A DNA stretch of 64,000 nt from an uncultured delta proteobacterium (GCA_963823335.1 CAWGLD010000001.1:640001-704000), one strand, 5' to 3'. Positions 5,709 through 52,008 are shown, counted from the first letter of the stretch. The notes: generated from the letters alone by a model not told the origin. Numbers and translations: made by a program.

Positions 5709-6875
5709 TTGAACAGGAGGATGTGTTTGAGTGGACTGATTCTATTTGTTGCGGTGTATCTGAGCATTTATGGCGGCGTACATGTTTATGGTTTTATCAG
5801 AGTAAAACAAGGCTTGGTCTTTGGCTTCTGGCCGGGACTGGTGATGGCGATCTTCATGGTTGTGATGGTGGCGGCGCCCATCATGGTCCGGATTGCCGAA
5901 AAGTTCGGGCACAACTCTATCGCTCACATCCTGGCCATCATCGGATTCATCTGGATGGGCTTTTTGTTTGTATTTGTATCGGCCTTGTTTTTCTTCGACG
6001 TTTACAGGTTTTTCCTGGCCATAGGCCGTTTCGTCTTCCAAACCTATTTGTTATCCATCACACCCACAGCAGGCTTTTCCTGTGTGGTGTCCATGCTTAT
6101 CGCGTGCAGTGTCATGGGTTATGGCTTTTTTGAGGCGCTCAATATCCGCCTGGAGCATGTCACCATCACTACGGACAAACTGCCCAAAAATTTGGACAGC
6201 CTGAGAATCGCCCAGATATCAGATGTCCATCTCGGTGTTCTGGTGGGTGAAATGCGACTGAAAAGAATTCTCGACAAGGTCAAGACGGCAAAGCCCCATA
6301 TGCTGGTGTCCACCGGCGATCTCGTGGATGGGCAGATGGACGACCCGGAGCGGCTGGCAGGCATGTTGCGGGAAATCGTAACACCGCACGGCAAATATGC
6401 CGTCACCGGAAATCACGAGTATTATGCCGGTCTTCCCCGCTCACTCGATTTTACGAAAAAAGCCGGTTTTGTGTTGCTGCAGGGTGAGACCCGAACACTA
6501 CCGAATTCGATCCACATCGCCGGTGTCGAGGACCCTGCCGGAAGATCTCCGGGGACCGCGGACAACGATTCAGAATCTCGTCTGCTGTCCACGCTCTCCA
6601 AGGACCTGTTTACCCTCCTGCTGAAACACCAGCCGGTTGTCGACAAGAACGGCGCCAGGCATTTCGATCTGCAGCTTTCCGGGCATACCCACAAAGGACA
6701 GATTTTCCCCTTCAGTCTGTTGACGAGACTGTTCTATAAAACACATCCGGGTCTGACCCGACTCCAGGATGGTTCTTTTGCTTACGTGAGCCGCGGATCC
6801 GGCACATGGGGACCACCGGTCAGATTTCTGTCACCACCGGAAGTGACACTCATCGAAATCGTGAGAAACCCGTAG
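5709..6875 (+). CDS. Membrane-anchored metallophosphoesterase (YkuE/YaeI-like)
   Basis: N-terminal TM helices; SDVH, GDLVD, GNHE and SGHTH motifs. Confidence 0.9.
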   Translation: MNRRMCLSGLILFVAVYLSIYGGVHVYGFIRVKQGLVFGFWPGLVMAIFMVVMVAAPIMVRIAEKFGHNSIAHILAIIGFIWMGFLFVFVSALFFFDVYRFFLAIGRFVFQTYLLSITPTAGFSCVVSMLIACSVMGYGFFEALNIRLEHVTITTDKLPKNLDSLRIAQISDVHLGVLVGEMRLKRILDKVKTAKPHMLVSTGDLVDGQMDDPERLAGMLREIVTPHGKYAVTGNHEYYAGLPRSLDFTKKAGFVLLQGETRTLPNSIHIAGVEDPAGRSPGTADNDSESRLLSTLSKDLFTLLLKHQPVVDKNGARHFDLQLSGHTHKGQIFPFSLLTRLFYKTHPGLTRLQDGSFAYVSRGSGTWGPPVRFLSPPEVTLIEIVRNP

Positions 6876-39935: not shown

Positions 39936-41225
39936 CTATTGAAGAAAAACCTTTTCCAGGCCTTTAATCAAAAAGTCTGCCTCATCATCACTGATATTGA
40001 GGGGTGGAGAGATACGTATGGTATGCCCGTGACTGTCATTTACGATAATGCCTAAATCAAGCAACTTTCTGCAAAACATCATGGCATCTCGATTTTCCAC
40101 TTCGATACCGATGAACAACCCCTTTCCCCTGACTTCCTTGATATGTTTTGACCTGACCGCAATTTTCATGATGCTATGTTTTAGCTTTTTTCCTTGTATT
40201 TCTGATGCCTTCGCCAACTGCTCCTCTTGGAGCACTTCCAAAGCAGATACACCTGCAACACAGGCAAGCGGATAACCACCAAATGTCGAACCATCAGATC
40301 CTTTACTAAATGCGATATCCATTAATTTTGCGTTCGTAACAAAGACAGACAAAGGAATAAGACCACCTGACAATGCCTTCCCCAAAATAAGTCCATCCGG
40401 AACAATGTTGTCATGCTCGAAACAAAAATTTTTTCCCGTACGTCCCAGACCGACCTGTATCTCGTCAAACATCAATAGCAGATCATTGTCATCCGCAATT
40501 TCGCGAAGCCCTTGCAAAAATCCAGAGGGAGGTATTCTCATGCCCCCTTCCCCCTGCATGGGTTCCACCAAAATGCCGCAGGTATGTTTGTTAATGACTG
40601 CTTTCACAGCATCCAGGTTGCCGAATTCAACCGATACAAATCCCGGTGTCAAGGGGCCGAAGCCATCTCGATATTTGGGCTGTGATGAAAAAGATATCAC
40701 CGTGATCATACGGCCATGAAAATTATTGTTAAAAACGATAATTTCCTGTTTGCCGTCGGGTATATTCTTTATTTTCCAACCATAGTAACGGGCCATTTTG
40801 ATGGCGGTGTCAACAGACTCCACACCACCGTTTTTCGGCATGACCTTGTTGCCATTCGATCCGAAACGCGGTCCCAACTGAGGAACGAATCCAGCTGTCT
40901 TGGATAAAAACAATGCCAAAGGATCTGTATAGACAACATTAGAAATGACGGAGGCGTAATTGCCGGTAAGCGCCTTTATGATGGCACTGACCACTTTTGG
41001 ATGGTGATGGCCGAGATTGGCAGCAGAATACGCAGCCAGACAATCCAGATACTTTTTACCGCTTACATCCGTAATCCAGCTGCCTTGAGCCGTTCTAGCC
41101 ACGACATCGAGTCGATTGTAATGCTTGGCACCAGACGATTGCTCCAGAGCATACGTCTCCGCATCTGTTACACGCGAAAACCCACACACAGGGGTATCAA
41201 ATGATATTGTCGGCAGATTCAGCAT
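39936..41225 (-). CDS. rocD: Ornithine aminotransferase-like class III aminotransferase
   Basis: DCLAAYSAANLGHHHP, NFHGR, EPMQGEGG, DEIQVGLGRTG, LGKALSGG and GSTFGG. Confidence 0.82.
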   Translation of the reverse strand: MLNLPTISFDTPVCGFSRVTDAETYALEQSSGAKHYNRLDVVARTAQGSWITDVSGKKYLDCLAAYSAANLGHHHPKVVSAIIKALTGNYASVISNVVYTDPLALFLSKTAGFVPQLGPRFGSNGNKVMPKNGGVESVDTAIKMARYYGWKIKNIPDGKQEIIVFNNNFHGRMITVISFSSQPKYRDGFGPLTPGFVSVEFGNLDAVKAVINKHTCGILVEPMQGEGGMRIPPSGFLQGLREIADDNDLLLMFDEIQVGLGRTGKNFCFEHDNIVPDGLILGKALSGGLIPLSVFVTNAKLMDIAFSKGSDGSTFGGYPLACVAGVSALEVLQEEQLAKASEIQGKKLKHSIMKIAVRSKHIKEVRGKGLFIGIEVENRDAMMFCRKLLDLGIIVNDSHGHTIRISPPLNISDDEADFLIKGLEKVFLQ

Positions 41226-41469: not shown

Positions 41470-42258
41470 ATGGATATTGCGTCTATTTTAAGGGAGTTTG
41501 CTTTTTCAAAATACGAATCGTCCTGCTACCTGGCACTACTTGCCAAGCACCCGTCGAATGGTTCCCAATTGAGCACCCTTTCAGGGATTGCCAGGTCAAG
41601 AATTTATGATGTTCTCCGCGGACTGTCAAAAAAAAAACTTGTTTTTGAGATCGAGAAAGGACTGTATGTGCCACTGCCTTTCGAGGAATTGAAAAAACGT
41701 CTTCGGAGTCAATTCGATTCAAATCTCAAGATTCTTGATGACCAGCTTGATGCCATGGTCGAACAGTCCAGTTTTGAGTACCTGTTTACCCTCAATGGTG
41801 TGGACGAAGTCATTGCAAAAGCAACGGATATCATCAATTCAGCCAAACAAGAACTCTATCTGCGTCTTTTCCCTGAAACATGGAGGCGGCTGCAGAAACA
41901 TATTCAGCGGGCTATTCATCGAGGTGTCGTTGTCCGTTTTATATCCATGGGTCCTATGGACTTTGTTTACGACATTCAGGTATTTCATCCGGATGTCGAA
42001 CAAATTAAGACCCGGCTCGGAGGTGAATCAATCGATATCATCGCCGATAAATCTGAAGCCATTGCCGGCATATTCGAAACAGACAATCTTAACCGTTCTC
42101 CCTTCATCTGGACCCGAAACCACTGGTTTGTCATCGCCAATCGGGATAGCCTTCGTCATGACTTTTATCATTATTTTTTAGATAAGCTCTATGAAAGAAG
42201 GGAAGCTCTTTCCACACGCGACAAACAGATATATGCGTTTATCAAAGCCGATGATTAA
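41470..42258 (+). CDS. TrmB family transcriptional regulator
   Basis: FSKYESSCYLALL...LSTLSGIARSRIYDVLRGL winged HTH. Confidence 0.9.
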   Translation: MDIASILREFAFSKYESSCYLALLAKHPSNGSQLSTLSGIARSRIYDVLRGLSKKKLVFEIEKGLYVPLPFEELKKRLRSQFDSNLKILDDQLDAMVEQSSFEYLFTLNGVDEVIAKATDIINSAKQELYLRLFPETWRRLQKHIQRAIHRGVVVRFISMGPMDFVYDIQVFHPDVEQIKTRLGGESIDIIADKSEAIAGIFETDNLNRSPFIWTRNHWFVIANRDSLRHDFYHYFLDKLYERREALSTRDKQIYAFIKADD

Positions 42259-43562
42259 TGGATGGTATGAACTGCCGGCAAGGGCTTGATAAAATTTTGC
42301 CTCAGGCTGTAGGTATAAGCACCCTGGGTCGGAATCATCAAAATATCACCCACTTGAATATCGTTACCGAAATACATATACCCCCAGATGTCATGGGGTG
42401 TACACAAGGCGCCGAGGATAAGGCACGGCTTTTCATCAAGGGAGGGGCGCGTCAGATTGAGGATGGGAAAATAGTCGTTTTCAAAACGCTCCCAGCCAAC
42501 CGTGTTGGTGCCGGCATCGGTAATCACCAAGTCCGGGGCCTTTTTGTCGACTACCGAAAGAAGCAGGTGCACGGCATCATTGCAAATCCAGCGACCCGGC
42601 TCCAGACAAATCCGGCACGAAACAACGCTGAAAAGATGTTTATGGATAGCAGCGCCGAGTTTTTCAGCAAATTCCTCAATGGGGACCGCCGGCAAACGGT
42701 GATGGGAATCAACGGGACCCGCAGACTGTCCCAGAGCCTCGCACAAACGGCCCTCCAATGTGCCGGCCGGCTGCAGCCATTCACCCTGGGAGGGCCAGTA
42801 ACCACCGCCAATATCGATAAATTCGAGTTGTGTTTGAAACAAAAGGGGCATCTGGGCCAGCGCTTTTCCGAGGGTGGCGATAAAATCGATCTGCTTATGT
42901 GGAGAGAGGTTCCAGCTGGAATGGAACTGTAATCCGATCAATTTGACATGACTGCATCGGCTGGTCTGCTCCCAGAATTTCTGCAGGTCCGATACAGGGA
43001 TGCCGAACTTGCGCCACAAACCATCCGGGTTGCTGTTCAGACGTACCCCACAGTGAATTTTTTTATTCAACTGCGCAGCAATGTCCTCCAGCCGGCTCAA
43101 TTCACCAAAACTGTCCATGAGAATCACCACTCGATCGGTATTGGAAACTGCAAGCCGCAGTTCTTGGGCTGTTTTCCCTGGACCGCTGAACACAATATCC
43201 CGGGCACCGAGTTTCAATGCCATCTCCAGTTCGATGCCACTGGAAACATCCAGACCAAAGCCTGCCTTTATCAGCGTTTCGGAAATATCGGGATGATTGT
43301 TGCTTTTAACGGCGTAATAGAATCCCACCGATGGCAGAACTGCCTGAAAGGCCTCCCTCAACTGGGCGGCCCTGGCCCTGAGAACCGACGCATCCTGCAG
43401 ATAAAGCGGCGCCGGGTGGTTGCTCAAAACCTGCAGATAGAGATCCCGCCTATCAAAATAATAGCTGACAAAGGAGGACAGTTCTTCTTTTGGCAGCAGG
43501 GGACTGCTCTGGGAGAGCAGCGCCTGAAACGTCTGCTGCAAATTGGATCGTTGGGTTGCCAT
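42255..43562 (-). CDS. PLP-dependent decarboxylase, Orn/DAP/Arg family 2 (alanine-racemase fold)
   Basis: YAVKSN, FSGPGK, KFG, DIGGG, EPGR, GALCTPHD and GAY. Confidence 0.88.
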   Translation of the reverse strand: MATQRSNLQQTFQALLSQSSPLLPKEELSSFVSYYFDRRDLYLQVLSNHPAPLYLQDASVLRARAAQLREAFQAVLPSVGFYYAVKSNNHPDISETLIKAGFGLDVSSGIELEMALKLGARDIVFSGPGKTAQELRLAVSNTDRVVILMDSFGELSRLEDIAAQLNKKIHCGVRLNSNPDGLWRKFGIPVSDLQKFWEQTSRCSHVKLIGLQFHSSWNLSPHKQIDFIATLGKALAQMPLLFQTQLEFIDIGGGYWPSQGEWLQPAGTLEGRLCEALGQSAGPVDSHHRLPAVPIEEFAEKLGAAIHKHLFSVVSCRICLEPGRWICNDAVHLLLSVVDKKAPDLVITDAGTNTVGWERFENDYFPILNLTRPSLDEKPCLILGALCTPHDIWGYMYFGNDIQVGDILMIPTQGAYTYSLRQNFIKPLPAVHTIH

Positions 43563-43568
43563 CGATAT

Positions 43569-44834
43569 CTACACTATCTCCACGATCAGTTTCTCGAGCA
43601 GTTCCCGGCATTCTACCTGCGGCTCGCCGCGTCCGTCAGGGTGAAAGATGACATGCCCCAGAATCCAGGAATCATAGTCTTCGGGTGGCATCTTGATCCG
43701 GTGTCCTGGCCTGTGCTTTAAATAGACCTCGGCCACACGTTTGTCCTGCTGCAGCCGGCCGACATCGACTGTTTTCAATGTGCCTCCACTGCCGGCATGA
43801 AGTCGCAACCCGATACAGGTACCCGAACCAGTTTTTTTTAATAATCGCAACGGCCGGCCCCGGGAAAAATCCAAAAACAACTTCAATATATCCAGGTTCC
43901 TACACCGCCGCAAAAGAAACGGCAGGCAGTCACCCCCGGGTCGTGGTGCCAGCTCAAGTAAAACGAGCCGGCCCTTATGAATGATAAAATCAAGCATGCA
44001 GACAGCCCGTACAAGACCCAGGGCTCCGGCGCTCGAGACAAGGGTTTGCAGAAAGTGCTCTTCATCCACTGTGGTCGGCAGTTCTGCTGGCAGCAGATAT
44101 CCCAGGGTCGTTCCAAAAGGCCCGCCGGAGGAAAGGATCTTACGGGTCAGCCGGATGACTCTGGCCTGTCCGTTTTCCAGCACGAAATCGCAGCTGTACT
44201 CGTCACCGTCCACCAAGGCTTCGGCCAGTATGACGGGTTCCTCCAAGAAAAAGGATTTGTAAAGACGGTTTCCCTGCCGCTGTTGCAGCCCCTGCTGTAT
44301 ATCACGAAAACGCTTCTCACAGGTACGGGTATCTCTACAGTCAAAGATCAATTCACTGCCACTGCCACTGACCGGTTTTAGCACACAGGCTCCGCCTAGG
44401 TCGCTGAAAAATTCAGCGGCTTCGGTAGCAGATCCTATTTGTTTAACCTGTGGGGTGTTCAGACCCTGTTTTTGCCAGAGAATTTTGGAAAGGTATTTAT
44501 CGCGGCAGTTTTTGACAGCCTGTACAGACGGATAGGACAACGAATATTCCCGGGCAAGAACGGCGGCCAGTTCCATGGATTCACAATCATAGCAGACAAC
44601 CCCATCCAGGTGCAGGCCATATTTGTGAAGGTGTCGTTGCAGCGAATGTCGCACCTGCCCTTCATCGGACAAATCGCACAGGGCTTCTTCAGCGGGTGCC
44701 GGGCAAGGTTCTCGGGCACCGCGGCGTAACACGGGGTCGGTCAGAAACAGGGCCTCCCCAGGACTGCTGCTCCGGATCCAATCGATGTAATCCGGGGTTG
44801 CACCAACCACCAGAACCCTATTGCTATATTGCAC
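43569..44834 (-). CDS. ATP-grasp ligase (L-amino-acid ligase-like)
   Basis: CRDKY, VLKPVSGSGS, EALVDGDEYSCD and LELAPRPGGD; start uncertain (GTG 44834). Confidence 0.85.
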   Translation of the reverse strand: MQYSNRVLVVGATPDYIDWIRSSSPGEALFLTDPVLRRGAREPCPAPAEEALCDLSDEGQVRHSLQRHLHKYGLHLDGVVCYDCESMELAAVLAREYSLSYPSVQAVKNCRDKYLSKILWQKQGLNTPQVKQIGSATEAAEFFSDLGGACVLKPVSGSGSELIFDCRDTRTCEKRFRDIQQGLQQRQGNRLYKSFFLEEPVILAEALVDGDEYSCDFVLENGQARVIRLTRKILSSGGPFGTTLGYLLPAELPTTVDEEHFLQTLVSSAGALGLVRAVCMLDFIIHKGRLVLLELAPRPGGDCLPFLLRRCRNLDILKLFLDFSRGRPLRLLKKTGSGTCIGLRLHAGSGGTLKTVDVGRLQQDKRVAEVYLKHRPGHRIKMPPEDYDSWILGHVIFHPDGRGEPQVECRELLEKLIVEIV

Positions 44835-45801
44835 AGGCAACCTGCAGACCGTCGACGGCCTCCTGCCAGGCGACGGTTGCAACCGGTACCGGTAGATTGA
44901 ACATCCTGTATAGGGGCCGTGCGGTCAGATGAAAACGATTTTTCCAGTTGAATTCGCCGCACAGAAAATCGACTTCCTTTAGACGCTGCCGGCAAGCCCA
45001 CTCTATATGATGGAAATTGATCAATTTGGCAACACCCGGAAAATCCGGGTGGGTACCCCCGGCCAGGACTGTATAGGACCGGTTCCAGACAGCGCCGACA
45101 TCCACGGCAGCAATTCGACCGCCCATGAGAACGGTTGTCACACGCAGCATCTTGTTGGCCTGCAGCCAGGCCAACAGGTTCTCAAAGGCCCTTAAGAAAC
45201 GGGCATCATAGAAATAGGATTGCTCCTTGAAGTTATCCAGGTTCATACGAAACAAATGCGCTAGATCATCGAAACAGTCATAACGGTAAGATACGCCTCC
45301 GTCTGTCAAGCGGTTCAGTTCGCTGCGCATTTTTTTACGGGATTTACCCGAAAAAGACTGCATGTAGGTCTGAAAGGAAAAATCATATTGCTGCGGATAG
45401 AACAGATATCCGATCTCGTCAACAACAGCCGCAGAATCACTCGCCAGACGCGGATCATGGGTGAGATAGCGGACCTTGGCCATTCCGGGAATGTGATTTA
45501 CCAGGGCACTGAAGACCTCCGGGTCACTGGCCAGGATTTTATTTTGTTCCAGCCAGGTTTTGCCATGCCATACTTCTCCCGGAAAATTACCGTAGCACTG
45601 CTGCTCGTCAATCCAGCTAAGGGCCAGCATTCCACGAAATTTATGATTTTCACTGGCAACGATAAAATAGGGCATGTAGTTGAATTGGGATTGAAAGCAA
45701 TAACGCACCGGCCAAAGGTCAAAAAGACATTGCTGCGGCCAGTGACGCTGCCAAAGTCCCCGAGCCGCTTCAAGATTTTTACATATATCGATGTTAAGCA
45801 T
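44824..45801 (-). CDS. GNAT-fold acyltransferase (FemAB/acetyltransf_6-like)
   Basis: SGKSRKKMRSE, G...DFPGVAKLIN...IEWAC and VDFLCG...WK.RF. Confidence 0.75.
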   Translation of the reverse strand: MLNIDICKNLEAARGLWQRHWPQQCLFDLWPVRYCFQSQFNYMPYFIVASENHKFRGMLALSWIDEQQCYGNFPGEVWHGKTWLEQNKILASDPEVFSALVNHIPGMAKVRYLTHDPRLASDSAAVVDEIGYLFYPQQYDFSFQTYMQSFSGKSRKKMRSELNRLTDGGVSYRYDCFDDLAHLFRMNLDNFKEQSYFYDARFLRAFENLLAWLQANKMLRVTTVLMGGRIAAVDVGAVWNRSYTVLAGGTHPDFPGVAKLINFHHIEWACRQRLKEVDFLCGEFNWKNRFHLTARPLYRMFNLPVPVATVAWQEAVDGLQVACAI

Positions 45802-45880
45802 CACGCGTCTCCCCAACCGATCTTTTCACTTATACATACCCGTCCGAAATTATGCTCATACAGCATGCGAGACTGTACAG

Positions 45881-45896
45881 AGCAGGTTTCATGCCA
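45881..45896 (-). promoter_or_regulatory. Sigma54 (-24/-12) promoter
   Basis: TGGCATGAAACCTGCT = GG-N10-GC, about 80 nt upstream of the GNAT start. Confidence 0.8.
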
Positions 45897-45983
45897 CCAC
45901 AAGAAGAATTTTTTAACATGCCGATATAATTAAATATTAATTATTGACGGCATGTTTTAAAAGGGCAATTCCGTACAGATAAA

Positions 45984-46025
45984 GTAAATATTTACCGATT
46001 TATGTTGATATTTGTAAAATTTTAC
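45984..46025. promoter_or_regulatory. Two palindromic upstream activator sites GTAAA-N2-TTTAC, 30 bp apart
   Basis: GTAAATATTTAC (45984-45995) and GTAAAATTTTAC (46014-46025); an AT-rich tract separates them from the promoter. Confidence 0.65.
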
Positions 46026-46094
46026 CGTAATTTGCAAGCAGGTTGGCAATGGCGTCATAACAGGACAGCGGTAGCCCGCCCTATTCAATTGGGA

Positions 46095-46240
46095 TATTAA
46101 CCCGGCGACTAAATAGCCAACCTCCGCCATGCCGGACTTGATCCGGCATCCAGTGTCTTTCTGGATAGCGCTAAAGCTTCACTTCGTGCCCCGCCTGTGC
46201 GGGAATGACAACCGTAGGGTATTTAACCGCCGGAGCAATA
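46095..46240. mobile_element. MITE/REP-like palindromic element
   Basis: Imperfect terminal IRs (17/23 by eye) enclosing ATGCCGGA-CTTGA-TCCGGCAT and CCCGC..GCGGGAATGAC hairpins. Confidence 0.6.
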
Positions 46241-46360
46241 TGAACACCAACAGTGAGCGCTCTCCCCATGGTTTGCTGGAACGAAGCCGAACTCCCGCCT
46301 GCGGGGCTGCGAGATTCTTGACTTTTTTCGGTATTATTTTACCGTTAATGGAAAAATAAC

Positions 46361-47803
46361 ATGCTCATCCGCGTTGGATTAAGTGTTAAAAGCAGAAACC
46401 TGCAAAACCATCTGGAGAAAGCTCTTTCATACTCGGATGTAAGGGTGGAATCCTTTGGACACCTGCGCTCTGCCTGGTTGAAAGTGGTTCGCAGCGGGTG
46501 CGAGGTCATCGTCATCAGTGAAGCACTCATCCCCCGCCCAACGGATAACGGTCTGGCAATTTTGAATGATCTGCCTGAAAACCCGACCACCGTAATCATC
46601 CATGAAAGTGATTCCGCCGAAGAGCATGCCCAACTGGCGGCGGCAGGAGCCGATGTGGTTCTTTTTGCAGGCATTTCCCGAAAAAGCATGCTGGAGGCAC
46701 TGGAAACGACGCTGGAATCCCGGCGCCAGTTTATCCGTATGAAACGGTTTCACCGGCGGGGTCTGTCCGAGCCAAAAATCGCCGACTTTGTTTCCGAAAG
46801 CCATGTCATGCAGCTTTTTATGGAAGAGGTCCGTCAGATAATTCCGAGTGATTCGCCCATTTTACTGTTGGGGGAAACCGGTGTCGGCAAAGAGCATCTG
46901 GCCAAGGCCATCCATGCCGAAAGCCCGCGCTCCGCCGGCCCTTTTATTTCGGTCAACATGGCGGGCATGCCTGAACAATTGATTGAAAGTGAACTGTTCG
47001 GTCATGAGCAGGGCGCTTTCACCGGCGCAATTCGGTATCGGCGTGGTGCTTTTGAACTGGCCCACGGGGGTACCATCTTTTTGGATGAAATCGGTGATAT
47101 GCCGCTGCACATGCAGGCCAAACTGTTGCGGGTACTGCAGAACTATGAGATCAAGCCCTTGGGCGGTGAAAACCCGTTGGAACTGGACGTGCGCGTCATC
47201 GCAGCGACCAACCAGAAGATTGAAGACGAAATCATGCGGGGTAATTTCAGGCAGGATCTTTATTATCGTCTCAGCGTTTTGATGCAGACCATCCCACCCC
47301 TGCGAGATCGCATTGAAGACATCCCCACACTGGTCAGACGTTTTATCGCATATTACCGCTATAAAATCGGACGGGAAATCAATGGTATTTCCGAAAAAGC
47401 CCTTCAGGCGCTCTGCAGTTACGACTGGCCGGGCAACGTCCGCGAATTGATGAACGTCATCGAACGCGCCATACTGCTGTGTAAAACCGATGCCATCAGC
47501 ATCGTGGAATTGCCTCACGTTTTTCAGGGCGGTGCCGCCTCTCCAAACATGAGCATGTCAGGTCTTCATTTTGAAAACACTGCGTGGTCAGACAAGACCT
47601 TGCCCGAAGTACAAAAAGAGATCATGGATCAAATCGAAAAACTATATCTTGAACAAGTGCTGAAAAAGACACATGGGCGTGTCGACCAGGCTGCCCGGAT
47701 TGCCGGCATCCATCCCAGGGGGTTGTTTACCAAGATGAAGCGACTCGGCTTACGTAAAGAGAATTTCAAAAAGCCGGTCTCTGAAAATTCGGCTGCCGAA
47801 TAG
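46361..47803 (+). CDS. Sigma54-dependent enhancer-binding protein (Fis family) with degenerate receiver domain
   Basis: [38 protein letters not shown] and a C-terminal HTH. Confidence 0.93.
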
Positions 47804-48550: not shown

Positions 48551-49936
48551 ATGGAACTTCATTCGAAACGGAAAAACAAAAAGGCTTCCATGGAAATGTA
48601 TCAAATGGATATCCAGCGGGCTTTGTCCATTTCACTGGCTGCGACGGACAATCTCACAGAAGGGTTAAACTTGTGCCTCGAAGCGAGTCTGCAGATTTCC
48701 GGTATGGATTGTGGCGGTGTCTACCTTTTCGATACCCGCCATGAAAATCTTGATTTGGTCGTTCACAAAGGACTTTCGAAAAATTTCGTCAAGCACATCG
48801 CAACATATGACAAAAATGCAGCAAATGTATTGCTTATTCAGAAAGGCAAGCCCCTCTATACCGTAACAACGAAGCTGGGGGTGCCCCGGTCTCCGGCGCA
48901 AAAACGCGAAGGCTTGCGAGCCCTGGCATCGTTACCATTGTATGACAAATCAAGGATTGTTGGATGTATCAATGTTGCGTCTCACGTTTTTGATGAGATT
49001 TCCCCTTCCTCCCGCATTGCCCTTGAAACTATTGCTGCGCAGGCAGGCAGTGTCATTGCTCGTCTGCAAGCAAAACAGGCGCTCCAGGAAAGCGAAGAGC
49101 ATTTAAGTTCGTTAATGCTTAACGCTGAGCATTACGCTGTTTATCGGTTACAAATCGATGGTTCAGACCCCCACGGGCTAAGAGTTGTTTTTGTAAGCCC
49201 TTCCATAGCAGATATCACGGGGGTTGCCGACCCGGAGAGGTTCGAGACCTGGTTTGAGAATGTCCATGCCGATGACAGGCAAAGAGTTCTATCAGCAAAT
49301 CAGAAAGCGTTCGAAACCAATGAATTTAATGAAGCCATGAAGATCAACCATCCCCGAAAAAAAGAGCATCGCTGGATCCATTCTATCTCTAAAGGTATTC
49401 GCTCCCAAGATGGCAAGATACAATTTGTCAATGGCATCATCATCGATATTACAGAACGAAAACTTGCCGAGCAGGCATTGCTTGCAAAAGAGAAAGAATT
49501 GGAATCAAAAACAAGCAAGCTCGAGGAGATCAACACCGCCCTGAACGTCCTGTTAGAAAAAAGAGAGCAGGATAAAATCCTTTTGCAGGAGCAGGTGCTG
49601 TCGAATGTGAAAAAACTGGTGATCCCATCCGTTGAAAAGCTGAAAAAAGGCACCCTCAACGAAATACAATCAGCCTTACTGGATGTTATCGAGTCAAGTC
49701 TGCATGAAATCGTTTCACCCTTTTCCCATAAACTGTCCTCTGAATTTTTCGGATTAACGCCCGCTGAAATAGAAGTGGCTGCTCTTGTCAGACAGGGCAA
49801 AGGAACAAAAGAAGTTGCAACAATCCGAAATCTTTCACACAAAACAGTGGCACGTCACAGGGAGAATATAAGGAACAAGCTCGGTATAAAAAATAAAAAA
49901 ATTAATCTGCAATCCTACCTGAACGCCCTCGCATAA
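48551..49936 (+). CDS. GAF-PAS-LuxR transcriptional regulator
   Basis: GAF region, PAS (VHADDR...DITERK) and LuxR HTH (LTPAEIEVA...HRENIRNKLG). Confidence 0.88.
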   Translation: MELHSKRKNKKASMEMYQMDIQRALSISLAATDNLTEGLNLCLEASLQISGMDCGGVYLFDTRHENLDLVVHKGLSKNFVKHIATYDKNAANVLLIQKGKPLYTVTTKLGVPRSPAQKREGLRALASLPLYDKSRIVGCINVASHVFDEISPSSRIALETIAAQAGSVIARLQAKQALQESEEHLSSLMLNAEHYAVYRLQIDGSDPHGLRVVFVSPSIADITGVADPERFETWFENVHADDRQRVLSANQKAFETNEFNEAMKINHPRKKEHRWIHSISKGIRSQDGKIQFVNGIIIDITERKLAEQALLAKEKELESKTSKLEEINTALNVLLEKREQDKILLQEQVLSNVKKLVIPSVEKLKKGTLNEIQSALLDVIESSLHEIVSPFSHKLSSEFFGLTPAEIEVAALVRQGKGTKEVATIRNLSHKTVARHRENIRNKLGIKNKKINLQSYLNALA

Positions 49937-49993: not shown

Positions 49994-50878
49994 TCATGAC
50001 CCGTTGACCCTGTGTGCGCCATCATGGGTCAGAAGGGGTGTATAGAGGGCAGGTCTACGATCCCTGAAGAGCCCCCAGCCACTTCTTTCTGCCGCCATGG
50101 CATCCAGGTCAACCTCCGCCGAGACAACCGTTTCCGAAGTACGGTCAGCCCGCTCCATTAGCCGGCCTTTATTGTCGGTAATAAAGGAAGACCCGTAAAA
50201 AGTAATCGCAGAACCATCGATGTTTTCTCTTCCCACACGATTTGACACCACCACAGGCACCATATTTGCAGCGGCATGTCCTTGTATACAGGTTTGCCAG
50301 TGATCCCTGGAGTCATATTCATGATCTTGCGGCTCGGAACCGATAGCGGTTGGGTAAAGGAGAATTTCAGCGCCCATGAGAACCATGCTCCTTGCAGCTT
50401 CAGGAAACCACTGATCCCAGCAGATGCCGATCCCGATGGTGCCGTAACGGGTTTTCCAGACACGAAAGCCGGTGTCACCGGGGCTGAAATAATATTTTTC
50501 CTGATACCCAGGCCCGTCCGGTATGTGTGATTTGCGATAGATGCCTAGAATGGCACCGTCTGCGTCGACAACCGCAATCGTGTTGTAATAGGTCTGATTC
50601 TTTTTTTCGAAAAAGCTGATGGGCAGCACAACCCTCAACTGTCTGGCGAGTGCTGAAAAATGTCGCACCCCGGGGTTGTCCTGAATATCGGCGGCGAGAC
50701 CGAAGAAATCCTGTTTCTGGGATTGACAAAAATAGAGCGTTTCAAAAAGTTCCTGAAGCAAAATGATCTGCGCGCCGCTGGAGGCGGCCTCCCGCACCAG
50801 TGTTTCAGCCTTGGCGATGTTTTCATCCCGGTCCGTGCTGCACATCATCTGGGTAGCGGCAATGGTTACTTTTCGCAT
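49994..50878 (-). CDS. aguB: N-carbamoylputrescine amidase
   Basis: LQELF, YRKSHIPDGPGYQEKYYFSPGDTGF, ICWDQWFPE and YPTAIGSEP. Confidence 0.95.
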   Translation of the reverse strand: MRKVTIAATQMMCSTDRDENIAKAETLVREAASSGAQIILLQELFETLYFCQSQKQDFFGLAADIQDNPGVRHFSALARQLRVVLPISFFEKKNQTYYNTIAVVDADGAILGIYRKSHIPDGPGYQEKYYFSPGDTGFRVWKTRYGTIGIGICWDQWFPEAARSMVLMGAEILLYPTAIGSEPQDHEYDSRDHWQTCIQGHAAANMVPVVVSNRVGRENIDGSAITFYGSSFITDNKGRLMERADRTSETVVSAEVDLDAMAAERSGWGLFRDRRPALYTPLLTHDGAHRVNGS

Positions 50879-50910
50879 GTGCGTCTTCTCCTTCGAGCCG
50901 CAACAATTTA

Positions 50911-52008
50911 TCAGACGGCCGGGACCTGCTGGGTGATACAATGGATGTTCCCGCCGCCGAGCAAAATCTCGCGGGTCTGTACACCCACGATCACCCGCTC
51001 GGGGAAAAGAGCTTGCAGGGATTGCCTGGCCGCCACATCGTGGGGATCGTCAAAAAACGGCATGACGATGCCTCCGTTGGCCATGTAAAAATTGATGTAG
51101 GACCCGGCCAGCCGGTCCCCGGGATTCCTGGGTCGCGTGTTGTCACTGGAATCGAGACCCTCACTTTCTGTTGCGGTCATAAAAAGAGGGCCTGGCTGAT
51201 GAATTTTATGAATTACGAGGTTTCTTCCCCGGGCATCTTTTGACCGGGATAAAAAATCGAAAGCTTCTTCAGATATTTTTCGCTGGGGATCGGTGACATC
51301 ATCCGTCCATGTGAGAGCAACGACCCCCGGTCTTATGAAACAGCACAGGTTGTCCACATGCCCGTCTGTCTCATCGTGGTAGACCCCTTGGGGGAGCCAG
51401 ATGATTTTTTCCACGTTTAAAAAGGATTCCAGATAATCTTCAATCTGCCTCTTTGAAAGTTGTGGGTTACGGTTGGCATTCAAAAGACAGCCTTCGGTGG
51501 TAATGAGCGTTCCTTCTCCATCCACATGAATGGCGCCCCCTTCCATGATGAATGGCGCCCGGTATCGATCCCTGTTTTCAATTTCGAGTACCTTTTTGGC
51601 AACCCGGTCGTCCTGGTCCCACGGAAAATAGAGTCCTTTTTCGAGCCCGCCCCAGGCGTTGAAGCGCCAGTCAATACCACGGACCACGCAAGTCCTGTCA
51701 TTTACGACAAAGGTGGGGCCCACATCCCGCATCCAGGCATCGTCGGAAGATATCTCCAGGACCCGCACTTGCCCGGGCAACCCAAGGCGGGCATTTTCGA
51801 GCTGGTGTCCTGACACCCCTACAGAAACCTGCTCGAAACGGGATATGGCCGCAGCGACTGCAGCAAACGCTTTTTGTGCGGGCTTGGCAGCAAGCCGCCA
51901 GGTGTCTTGTCGCTCCGGCCAGAGCATCCAGCAGCCCTGGTGGGGCTCGAACTCACCCGGCATGCGAAAACCGTCATTCCGTGGATGGTTGTTCAAAGTC
52001 GTTGACAT
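50911..52008 (-). CDS. aguA: Agmatine deiminase
   Basis: [33 protein letters not shown] and [11 protein letters not shown]. Confidence 0.96.

Follow-up and report, generated by a model that had tools for sequence, protein, structure and literature searches.

The subject of this report is a compact operon in a stretch of 64,000 nt from an uncultured delta proteobacterium (GCA_963823335.1 CAWGLD010000001.1:640001-704000); the whole of this stretch is called the window. The operon contains genes for a double-GNAT transferase, an ATP-grasp ligase and a pyridoxal-phosphate (PLP)-dependent decarboxylase, and a divergent gene for a sigma-54 enhancer-binding protein lies upstream of it. An earlier reading of the window made without database searches (the sequence-only reading) had singled out these genes as a candidate for a new biosynthetic or modification pathway. 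Coordinates of the operon, of its regulatory elements and of the neighboring genes are presented in Table 1.

Table 1. Predicted features of the operon and its surroundings, in coordinates of the window.
Feature	Position	Strand	Remarks
Fold-III (alanine-racemase-fold) PLP decarboxylase, 435 aa	42255-43562	-	Pfam PF02784 Orn_Arg_deC_N and PF00278 Orn_DAP_Arg_deC
L-amino-acid-ligase-type ATP-grasp ligase, ~421 aa	43569-44834	-	Pfam ATP-grasp_4/3 and weak LAL_C2
FemX-like double-GNAT transferase, 325 aa	44824-45801	-	Acetyltransf_6 PF13480, 84 bits
Sigma-54 (-24/-12) promoter	45881-45896	-	TGGCATGAAACCTGCT; ~80 nt upstream of GNAT ATG; sole TGGCAY-N5-YTGCW match in 64 kb
Two activator-binding dyads	45984-45995 and 46014-46025		GTAAATATTTAC and GTAAAATTTTAC; GTA-N6-TAC form, 30 bp apart
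Third GTA-N6-TAC dyad	46331-46342		19 nt before activator start codon
Divergent sigma-54 enhancer-binding protein, 480 aa	46361-47803	+	Pfam Sigma54_activat, AAA_lid and HTH_8
h195, papain/C39-like Cys-His protein, 195 aa	47959-48546	+	Directly after activator gene
143-bp element	46096-46238		Dispersed repeat
aguB	49994-50941	-	Pfam CN_hydrolase; agmatine to putrescine route; context, outside operon
aguA	50911-52008	-	Pfam PAD_porph; agmatine to putrescine route; context, outside operon
GAF-PAS-LuxR(GerE) regulator	48551-49936
TrmB-like regulator	41470-42258
Ornithine-aminotransferase-like gene	39936-41225

The three enzyme genes are as tightly linked as had been stated in the sequence-only reading. 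Between the ligase stop codon and the ATG of the decarboxylase there are 6 nt, and the GNAT stop codon overlaps the likely GTG start of the ligase (44834) by 11 nt. The longest open reading frame (ORF) of the ligase begins at 44882 and the database record uses 44810, a start which would leave a gap of 13 nt after the GNAT stop codon; the GNAT ORF spans 44824-45816 (- strand), with an ATG at 45801. No convincing membrane segment was found in the three enzymes. Contigs of RNA libraries from four estuary metatranscriptome runs (at most three samples and studies) matched most of the operon with 95-100% identity, which attests its presence, while transcription, strand and 5' ends cannot be read from contigs.

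More than 120 homologues of the ligase were found with at least 54% identity, uncharacterised and mostly from Desulfobacterales metagenomes, and a scan with one genome per species yielded 272 genome relatives. Locus comparisons were done with the best 80 of these 272 relatives (designated by L numbers), among which 64 are context-complete, having at least 3.5 kb upstream and at least 2.5 kb downstream. Ligase and decarboxylase are present in all 64 context-complete loci, the GNAT in 60 and the divergent activator in 55, and the order GNAT-ATP-grasp-decarboxylase has been kept in 60. An AdoMet_dc-family gene (referred to below as SpeDC-like) lies directly upstream of the GNAT gene in 44 of them, a small leader ORF is found in 27, a gene for a C39-like peptidase follows the decarboxylase in 15, and the h195 family is represented in five. 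No other gene family recurred in more than 16 of the 80 loci. The gene set is real, conserved and uncharacterised; no description of it was found in a literature search, outside which supplements and subscription-only papers lay, and only phevamine and E-64 were relevant there as analogues, in agreement with the sequence-only reading, to which no described pathway with this trio was known.

The best 80 loci include metagenome-assembled genomes of Desulfobacterales, Nitrospirota, Krumholzibacteria, Omnitrophota and Planctomycetota, and two cultured carriers are among them, Desulfosarcina alkanivorans PL12 (L033) and Desulfospira joergensenii DSM 10085 (L064). In the window's class, a ligase orthologue (E<=1e-80) was found in 93 of 401 sampled genomes, belonging to 37 of 151 genera, and of the two other genomes of the window's genus one has the orthologue and one lacks it. 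Since the occurrence is uneven both in the class and in the genus, the set is best described as a patchy accessory module.

The window's own architecture (activator, h195, GNAT, ligase, decarboxylase) is common only to L001, L002 and L006. In the ligase tree, the closest branch to the window's clade is its sister L004, a locus with the small ORF as well as the SpeDC-like gene, and therefore the window can be regarded as a derived, reduced form of a cassette of four to five genes. The three genes recognized in the sequence-only reading make up the conserved core of this widespread cassette. The four loci lacking the GNAT belong to Desulfobacula, and in five Desulfobacula-type genomes searched, the GNAT was found at a second locus together with a SpeDC-like gene and the activator.

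This split cassette consists of small ORF, ligase and decarboxylase at L053-L058 and of activator, SpeDC-like gene and GNAT at L084-L088. The Desulfobacula-type ligase locus has in addition a second, divergent SpeDC-like gene about 2 kb upstream and, downstream, a gene for a very acidic protein of 127 aa with an EFWPD-like motif. The GNAT orthologue of L085 (G005:C240:8826-9767) has three in-frame TGA codons and may represent a pseudogene, an assembly error or recoding.

A GG-N10-GC promoter and two GTAAA-N2-TTTAC sites had been noted upstream of the operon, and both observations have been reproduced. The promoter has the canonical spacing of -24 GG and -12 GC, and the sites at 45984 and 46014 are the only GTAAA-N2-TTTAC matches in the window, even when one mismatch is allowed; they are located at about -100 and -129 from the promoter. 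Taken singly, the motif counts are within chance, being reached by 35-36 of 100 shuffles, and therefore the weight of this evidence lies in position and conservation. A TGG[CT]A[CT]-N5-xTGC element was found between activator and operon in 48 loci, of at most 61 with an activator found by clustering. GTAAA-N2-TTTAC was rejected as the general site, being present in just 7 of these 48 loci, and the looser GTA-N6-TAC is the conserved form. With an AT-rich spacer, its frequency in the 280 bp preceding the promoter is raised about 37-fold in the 48 related loci, 26 of which have at least one such dyad and 14 at least two. The dyads pile up at -98 to -102 and at -127 to -132, with 30 bp as the commonest spacing, and the window sites are found at these two places as well. 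Related loci have another dyad cluster at -216 to -286 from the promoter. The third dyad of the window is possibly autoregulatory.

The divergent activator has the GAFTGA motif that had been ascribed to it, and 62 of 64 orthologues share the motif. It is composed of a degenerate receiver-like N-domain, an AAA+ domain with GAFTGA and a Fis-type helix-turn-helix. The N-domain scored 15.6 bits on Response_reg, below the cut-off, and has Ser53 at the apparent phospho-Asp position, where Ser is the commonest residue (56 of 64 orthologues); we read it as a pseudo-receiver. The genome also has rpoN (Sigma54_DBD, 207 bits). The operon is, by these sequence features, sigma-54-dependent with its own enhancer-binding protein, for which both binding and activation are predicted.

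The 143-bp element between the dyads and the activator gene is a dispersed repeat, for which blastn gave 17 other matches in the genome, full or partial, with 71-96% identity. Since it is skipped in RNA-library contigs from three estuary runs (two samples), it is an insertion polymorphism in the regulatory region.

In the decarboxylase, the PLP-lysine motif YYAVKSNN, GGG, EPGR and the Cys loop CTPHD (residues 387-391) were identified, and K86, GGG, EPGR and C387 are invariant in the orthologues. The sequence-only reading had stressed that CTPHD replaces the LysA-type loop, and the loop has been kept in 73 of 75 orthologues. With the LysA model TIGR01048 the protein scored 149 bits (cut-off 297.9). 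Two other fold-III decarboxylases in the genome are LysA-like, one with CESGD and the other with CENND, and the gene for the latter, which scored 297.3 bits on the same model, just under the cut-off, adjoins that for an LL-diaminopimelate aminotransferase. From score, loop and these LysA-like genes elsewhere, the decarboxylase is not a plain LysA or ornithine decarboxylase. Of the two outcomes named as refuting the sequence-only reading, a decarboxylase of this plain type and a lack of co-occurrence of the genes elsewhere, neither was found.

When a profile of 34 decarboxylase orthologues was compared with PDB, the best match was the N-citrylornithine decarboxylase FigC/FslC (7kh2) over the full length with E 1e-37, followed by Aquifex LysA, SbnH and BtrK. 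Since the score on the FslC model of NCBIfam (89 bits) is far under its cut-off of 500, the decarboxylase is not an FslC equivalog. In the PDB alignments the Cys loop is CMQHD in FigC, CETGD in LysA, CTPKD in SbnH and CTPED in BtrK, so that the CTPxD motif named in the sequence-only reading is found in SbnH and BtrK at that place. The loop of the window's enzyme fits the C-x-x-(H/K/E)-D type of FigC, SbnH and BtrK, and its H390 is at the position of FigC H357 and SbnH K347. According to passages of PMC7857480, FigC, SbnH, AcsE, MccE and BtrK form one clade with diaminopimelate decarboxylase (DAPDC), the Cys loop is a specificity element, and FigC H357 and SbnH K347, both at its fourth position, are residues for substrate specificity that contact the tethered citryl group. 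This likeness of the loop and the position of H390 support, as the putative substrate, an amino acid tethered through its side chain.

The ligase scored 55.8 bits on PF13535 and 22 bits on LAL_C2, the latter below the cut-off of 29.4. Its family profile matched, in PDB, 4dim (deposited as a GAR-synthetase-like protein), the L-amino acid ligase BL00235 (3vot; E 4e-19), BacD and 4wd3. Judged from these matches, it is an ATP-grasp enzyme of the L-amino-acid-ligase (LAL) type, and a dipeptide product is not implied by this assignment. Amide formation with polyamines is known for other ATP-grasp enzymes, since HsvB and HsvC acylate polyamines with amino acids in phevamine synthesis, as described in passages of PMC6187163. 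A feature unusual for ATP-grasp enzymes is the set of eight cysteines that do not vary among 16 diverse ligase orthologues. A graspetide (microviridin-type) reading was also considered and rejected: the ligase has 413-421 aa and is nearest to L-amino-acid ligases, and no precursor was found in the window. In the graspetide survey PMC8939145, decarboxylase, FemAB, sigma-54, Desulfobacter and AdoMet are unmentioned.

The GNAT is a member of Acetyltransf_6, as its earlier naming implied, with a weak LPG_synthase_C match in Pfam. By sequence it had no match in PDB, either as a single sequence or as a profile, and none among NCBIfam models. Its AlphaFold model (pLDDT 89, pTM 0.86) is a double GNAT, for which Foldseek gave the aminoacyl-tRNA-dependent peptide synthases Sba18/Sbb17 (streptothrisamine-bound) as the best matches, followed by FemX and the MprF C-domain; E values of the top matches were 5e-12 to 1e-8, with TM-scores of just 0.53-0.63. 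The name GNAT has thus been narrowed to a FemX-like, double-GNAT fold, as modeled, whose nearest structures are aminoacyl-tRNA-dependent. An alignment of 37 sequences shows no variation at W286, K287 and F290 and hardly any at K153, R155 and K156 of a basic helix; K287 is in the last GNAT domain, near the C-terminus. According to passages of PMC12945691, enzymes of the FemX-type family have a catalytic Lys (K305 in FemX, K329 in DhpH-C) and bind tRNA through a basic helix. We infer that K287 and the basic helix correspond to FemX K305 and to the tRNA-binding helix, respectively.

The SpeDC-like protein of the fuller cassettes (AdoMet_dc, 78 bits) has kept the residues for processing to a pyruvoyl enzyme, Ser, His and Cys; these are invariant, as are Gln, Thr, Phe and Tyr in their vicinity. 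Residues of the Gln/Thr/Phe/Tyr types are given as diagnostic of SpeDC ornithine decarboxylases in passages of PMC10407285, and the cassette gene fits this type by its predicted residues. Comparison with PDB gave nothing relevant, with a single sequence or with a profile. Directly upstream of the GNAT gene, L011 has an internally deleted remnant ORF of 69 aa (L011:5809-6018) and L008 a C-terminal remnant of 31 residues (~5909-6001), both SpeDC-like; these remnants point to repeated loss of the gene from the cassette. In the window's genome (completeness 93.9%), no gene for AdoMet_dc or for a pyruvoyl arginine decarboxylase was found.

The sequence-only reading had placed the operon inside a polyamine island. 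This holds in part: aguA, aguB and a PotD-type ATP-binding cassette transporter are 2-9 kb away, aguA/aguB being 2-6 kb from the activator gene, and an ornithine-aminotransferase-like gene lies on the other side. These neighbors are, however, limited to the nearest relatives, and the TrmB-like regulator and the ornithine-aminotransferase-like gene have been kept only in L001, L002 and L006. TrmB-like regulator, aminotransferase and MltF, all confined to these three loci, were rejected as parts of the module. The TrmB-like gene is convergent with the decarboxylase gene and overlaps its end by 4 nt. The GAF-PAS-LuxR(GerE) regulator between h195 and aguB is also present in L002.

On the basis of the observed gene content, order and conservation, of the regulatory architecture and of the family and fold assignments, we lean with moderate confidence to the reading that the cassette builds a small amide-linked conjugate of one or more amino acids and a diamine such as putrescine, by a cytoplasmic route independent of nonribosomal peptide synthetase (NRPS). 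An acylated amino-acid/diamine conjugate had already been suggested in the sequence-only reading, and the co-occurrence of the genes and the non-LysA character of the decarboxylase support it; we infer the substrates, the order of steps and the product. The activator would turn the operon on by binding to the pair of GTA-N6-TAC dyads, which precede the -24/-12 promoter by about 100 and 130 bp. The LAL-type ATP-grasp enzyme would convert a carboxylate to an acyl phosphate and join it to an amine, leaving an amino acid that is tethered through its side chain and has its alpha-amino and alpha-carboxyl groups free. The FigC/SbnH/BtrK-like decarboxylase would then strip the tethered alpha-carboxylate to give a new primary amine, and the FemX-like enzyme would aminoacylate a free amine once more, with aminoacyl-tRNA as the donor. 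The SpeDC-type pyruvoyl gene that many relatives have in the operon would supply putrescine; the window lineage has lost this gene and may use the nearby aguA/aguB route. Since there is no conserved exporter, a secreted natural product is unlikely.

Several points weigh against the conjugate reading. The usual products of LAL-type ligases are alpha-dipeptides, whose C-terminal residue lacks a free alpha-amine and therefore could not be used by a PLP decarboxylase; the tether through the side chain is assumed. The donor for the GNAT could be an acyl-CoA, since CoA-dependent tandem GNATs are also among the fold matches, at lower rank. When a single decarboxylase sequence is searched with hidden Markov models (HMMs), the NCBIfam model with the highest score is still LysA. 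All functions are predicted, no member of the set having an assigned product, substrate or activity. The small ORF leads the operon in 27 of the 64 loci and stays with ligase and decarboxylase when the cassette is split.

The diamine supply figures on both sides of the balance. In 49 classified genomes of 50 searched (L074 was unclassifiable), aguA was found in 15 of 20 with a SpeDC-less cassette and in 5 of 29 with SpeDC kept, and the raw Fisher test gave p 8e-5. The ligase tree has 46 rows, three having been dropped with the ligase ORF outside the cluster, and on its supported branches the contrast is reduced to 3 independent pairs (sign test p 0.5); in addition, five SpeDC-less genomes are also without aguA. 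Because the complementarity fails this correction for relatedness, we retain it only as a hint that the cassette depends on a source of diamine. A link of aguA/aguB to the operon as its diamine supplier is possible, but not statistically secure.

The best surviving rival, which we hold to be unlikely, is a chemistry on a carrier or scaffold, modeled after BtrI/BtrJ/BtrK of butirosin: the ligase would tether an amino acid to a small protein, decarboxylase and GNAT would act on the tethered residue, and a papain-like enzyme would release or transfer the product. In relatives this small protein would be encoded by the basic leader ORF, and in the window's genome an unrecognised counterpart would take its place. 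The sequence-only reading had seen no carrier protein, which is correct for the window, and the relatives add a conserved small ORF. In 34 of the 80 loci (E<1e-3; for example L004:5210-5458, L013:5239-5421, L014:5779-5970 and about 30 further loci) the promoter is followed by this ORF, 57-85 aa long, as the first gene, and its product is very charged, with an acidic N-half and a conserved basic core of consensus KxSGKRxHRKKTxKDxxW. The Desulfobacula genomes keep it with ligase and decarboxylase, while SpeDC-like gene and GNAT are with the activator elsewhere. Since it is conserved and travels with these two enzymes, the substrate could be protein-bound, and BtrK, a close structural relative of the decarboxylase, acts on carrier-bound glutamate according to passages of PMC7857480. 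Papain/C39-like genes recur as well, downstream of the decarboxylase or in the form of h195.

On the other side, the small ORF is missing from 37 of the 64 context-complete loci, and a search of the window's own genome did not reveal it (best HMM E 4.2; completeness 93.9%), the intergenic ORFs of the window showing nothing alike. It has no Pfam family, no usable Atlas look-up match and no invariant residue, and no conserved C-terminus or Ser is shared by all members. A complex prediction for the ATP-grasp enzyme and small ORF product of L013 (score 0.00, mark 0.32) had no controls and is uninformative either way.

The h195 protein has no Pfam match, and its family is strongly conserved, with at least 59% identity among the matches listed (at least 120 clusters). 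A language-model look-up likened it to 'Peptidase C39' clusters (score 0.99), and the best folds for its model (pLDDT 82) were the PCAT1 C39 domain, cathepsins, PeiR and CtaG, with TM-scores of 0.4-0.5. Q8, C14, H121 and D137 are invariant in 30 sequences. Comparison of h195 with the other C39-like family (A5) by hhalign gave no match, and the papain-like nature of the two rests on separate evidence for each. An h195 gene is adjacent in five of the 80 loci and present in four of 40 other cassette genomes. It is a sporadic accessory, not a core part.

Salvage or catabolism of a polyamine or amino acid, by conjugation-based breakdown or storage and with no dedicated end product, is in our view quite improbable. 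Sigma-54 often governs nitrogen scavenging, and aguA/aguB, the uptake system and the ornithine-aminotransferase-like gene in the window would suit such a module. These neighbors are nevertheless restricted to the nearest relatives, the cassette often has its own amine-producing decarboxylase, and ATP-consuming ligation together with tRNA-dependent addition would be costly for catabolism.

We consider it very improbable that the module modifies the cell envelope, with the FemX/MprF-like enzyme aminoacylating a peptidoglycan precursor or lipid head group and the ligase and decarboxylase preparing or trimming the residue. Peptidoglycan-directed FemX, the aminoacyl-phosphatidylglycerol synthases of the MprF type and the weak LPG_synthase_C match speak for it. 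Absence of membrane segments and of conserved mur, lipid and transporter genes nearby speaks against it, as do the best fold matches, which act on a small-molecule amine, and the pyruvoyl decarboxylase partner, which indicates amines.

Least probable of all, and given hardly any credence here, is a siderophore-like or secreted chelator pathway in the manner of rhizoferrin or staphyloferrin B with an ATP-grasp enzyme replacing the NRPS-independent siderophore (NIS) synthetase, which would account for the decarboxylase profile matching FigC and SbnH and for the same ligase-then-decarboxylase logic, but is opposed by the lack of an NIS synthetase, exporter, receptor or iron regulator among conserved neighbors, by control through sigma-54 and not an iron repressor, and by hosts that are strict anaerobes, for which ferrous iron is usually soluble.

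Returning to the amide-linked conjugate, we tentatively put forward a bolder version, a possibility below the general reading in likelihood: the cassette may make a new class of intracellular amide-linked polyamine analogue, for example an aminoacylated (aminoacyl)-putrescine that arises when ligation is followed by loss of the carboxylate from the tethered residue and by an extension dependent on tRNA. Roughly one in four genomes of the Desulfobacteria class, along with members of several further anaerobic phyla, would turn it on through a sigma-54 activator of its own, with the small basic protein serving as carrier, sensor or binding partner of the product in the fuller versions. If the conjugate reading is right, a polyamine-like metabolite not yet described is made in many sulfate reducers of environmental importance, through a compact route that needs no NRPS and combines ligation by an ATP-grasp enzyme, removal of a carboxylate from a tethered amino acid and aminoacylation from tRNA. 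Such a pathway would also widen the range of FigC/SbnH/BtrK-type decarboxylases and of FemX-like enzymes acting on small molecules, and would provide a function for genes of AdoMetDC-derived decarboxylases outside classical polyamine clusters.

Comparison with known systems shows partial likeness to several of them. In FigA/FigC (FslA/FslC) of rhizoferrin and SbnE/SbnH of staphyloferrin B, an amide ligase produces a side-chain-tethered amino acid and a DAPDC-related fold-III decarboxylase follows; the likeness extends to FigC as the best PDB match of the decarboxylase profile and to the place of H390. Unlike FigA and SbnE, the ligase here is an ATP-grasp enzyme and not an NIS synthetase, and no citrate chemistry is implied; the cassette also differs from those pathways in lacking transport and iron-regulation genes and in having an added FemX-like transferase.

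In the side-chain pathway of butirosin, BtrJ is the ATP-grasp partner of BtrK, and the pairing of an ATP-grasp ligase with a CTPxD-type decarboxylase is shared with the present operon. BtrK acts on tethered glutamate, as stated in passages of PMC7857480. In contrast to butirosin, the window has no acyl carrier protein or phosphopantetheine domain and no aminoglycoside genes. Membership in a carrier pathway of the butirosin type was rejected: the window cluster has no acyl carrier protein with a phosphopantetheine site, and the small ORF of relatives is without a Pfam family or an invariant Ser.

An orphan trio is also known from the exosortase-A-associated set, in which the DAPDC-like decarboxylase TIGR03099 has a FemAB-like protein and an acyl-CoA ligase as partners, and FemAB-like protein, carboxylate-activating ligase and decarboxylase are common to that set and to ours. 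This reading was rejected on the TIGR03099 score of 98 bits (cut-off 478), on the GNAT having no NCBIfam match and on the absence of exosortase/PEP-CTERM genes nearby. The SpeDC-like gene, found in relatives and not in the window, resembles SpeDC in its processing residues Ser, His and Cys and in invariant Gln, Thr, Phe and Tyr. SpeDC genes in PMC10407285 cluster with speD/speE, CASDH/CASDC or hss, and ATP-grasp enzymes are unmentioned in the passages searched.

The FemX-type small-molecule transferases (Orf11, Sba18/Sbb17, PacB, VlmA, DhpH/DhpK) share with the GNAT the double-GNAT fold and a conserved Lys near the C-terminus; the GNAT differs in having no detectable sequence similarity to solved members, and its tRNA dependence is predicted from the model. 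Phevamine of Pseudomonas syringae (HsvA/HsvB/HsvC) is a secreted virulence factor of a plant pathogen, made with an amidinotransferase and two ATP-grasp enzymes and with neither a decarboxylase nor a FemX-like enzyme. Its ATP-grasp enzymes HsvB/HsvC are likened to our ligase by the function predicted for the latter. The common ground is a three-gene operon in which, according to passages of PMC6187163, ATP-grasp enzymes condense amino acids with the amine of a polyamine to give a small amide conjugate.

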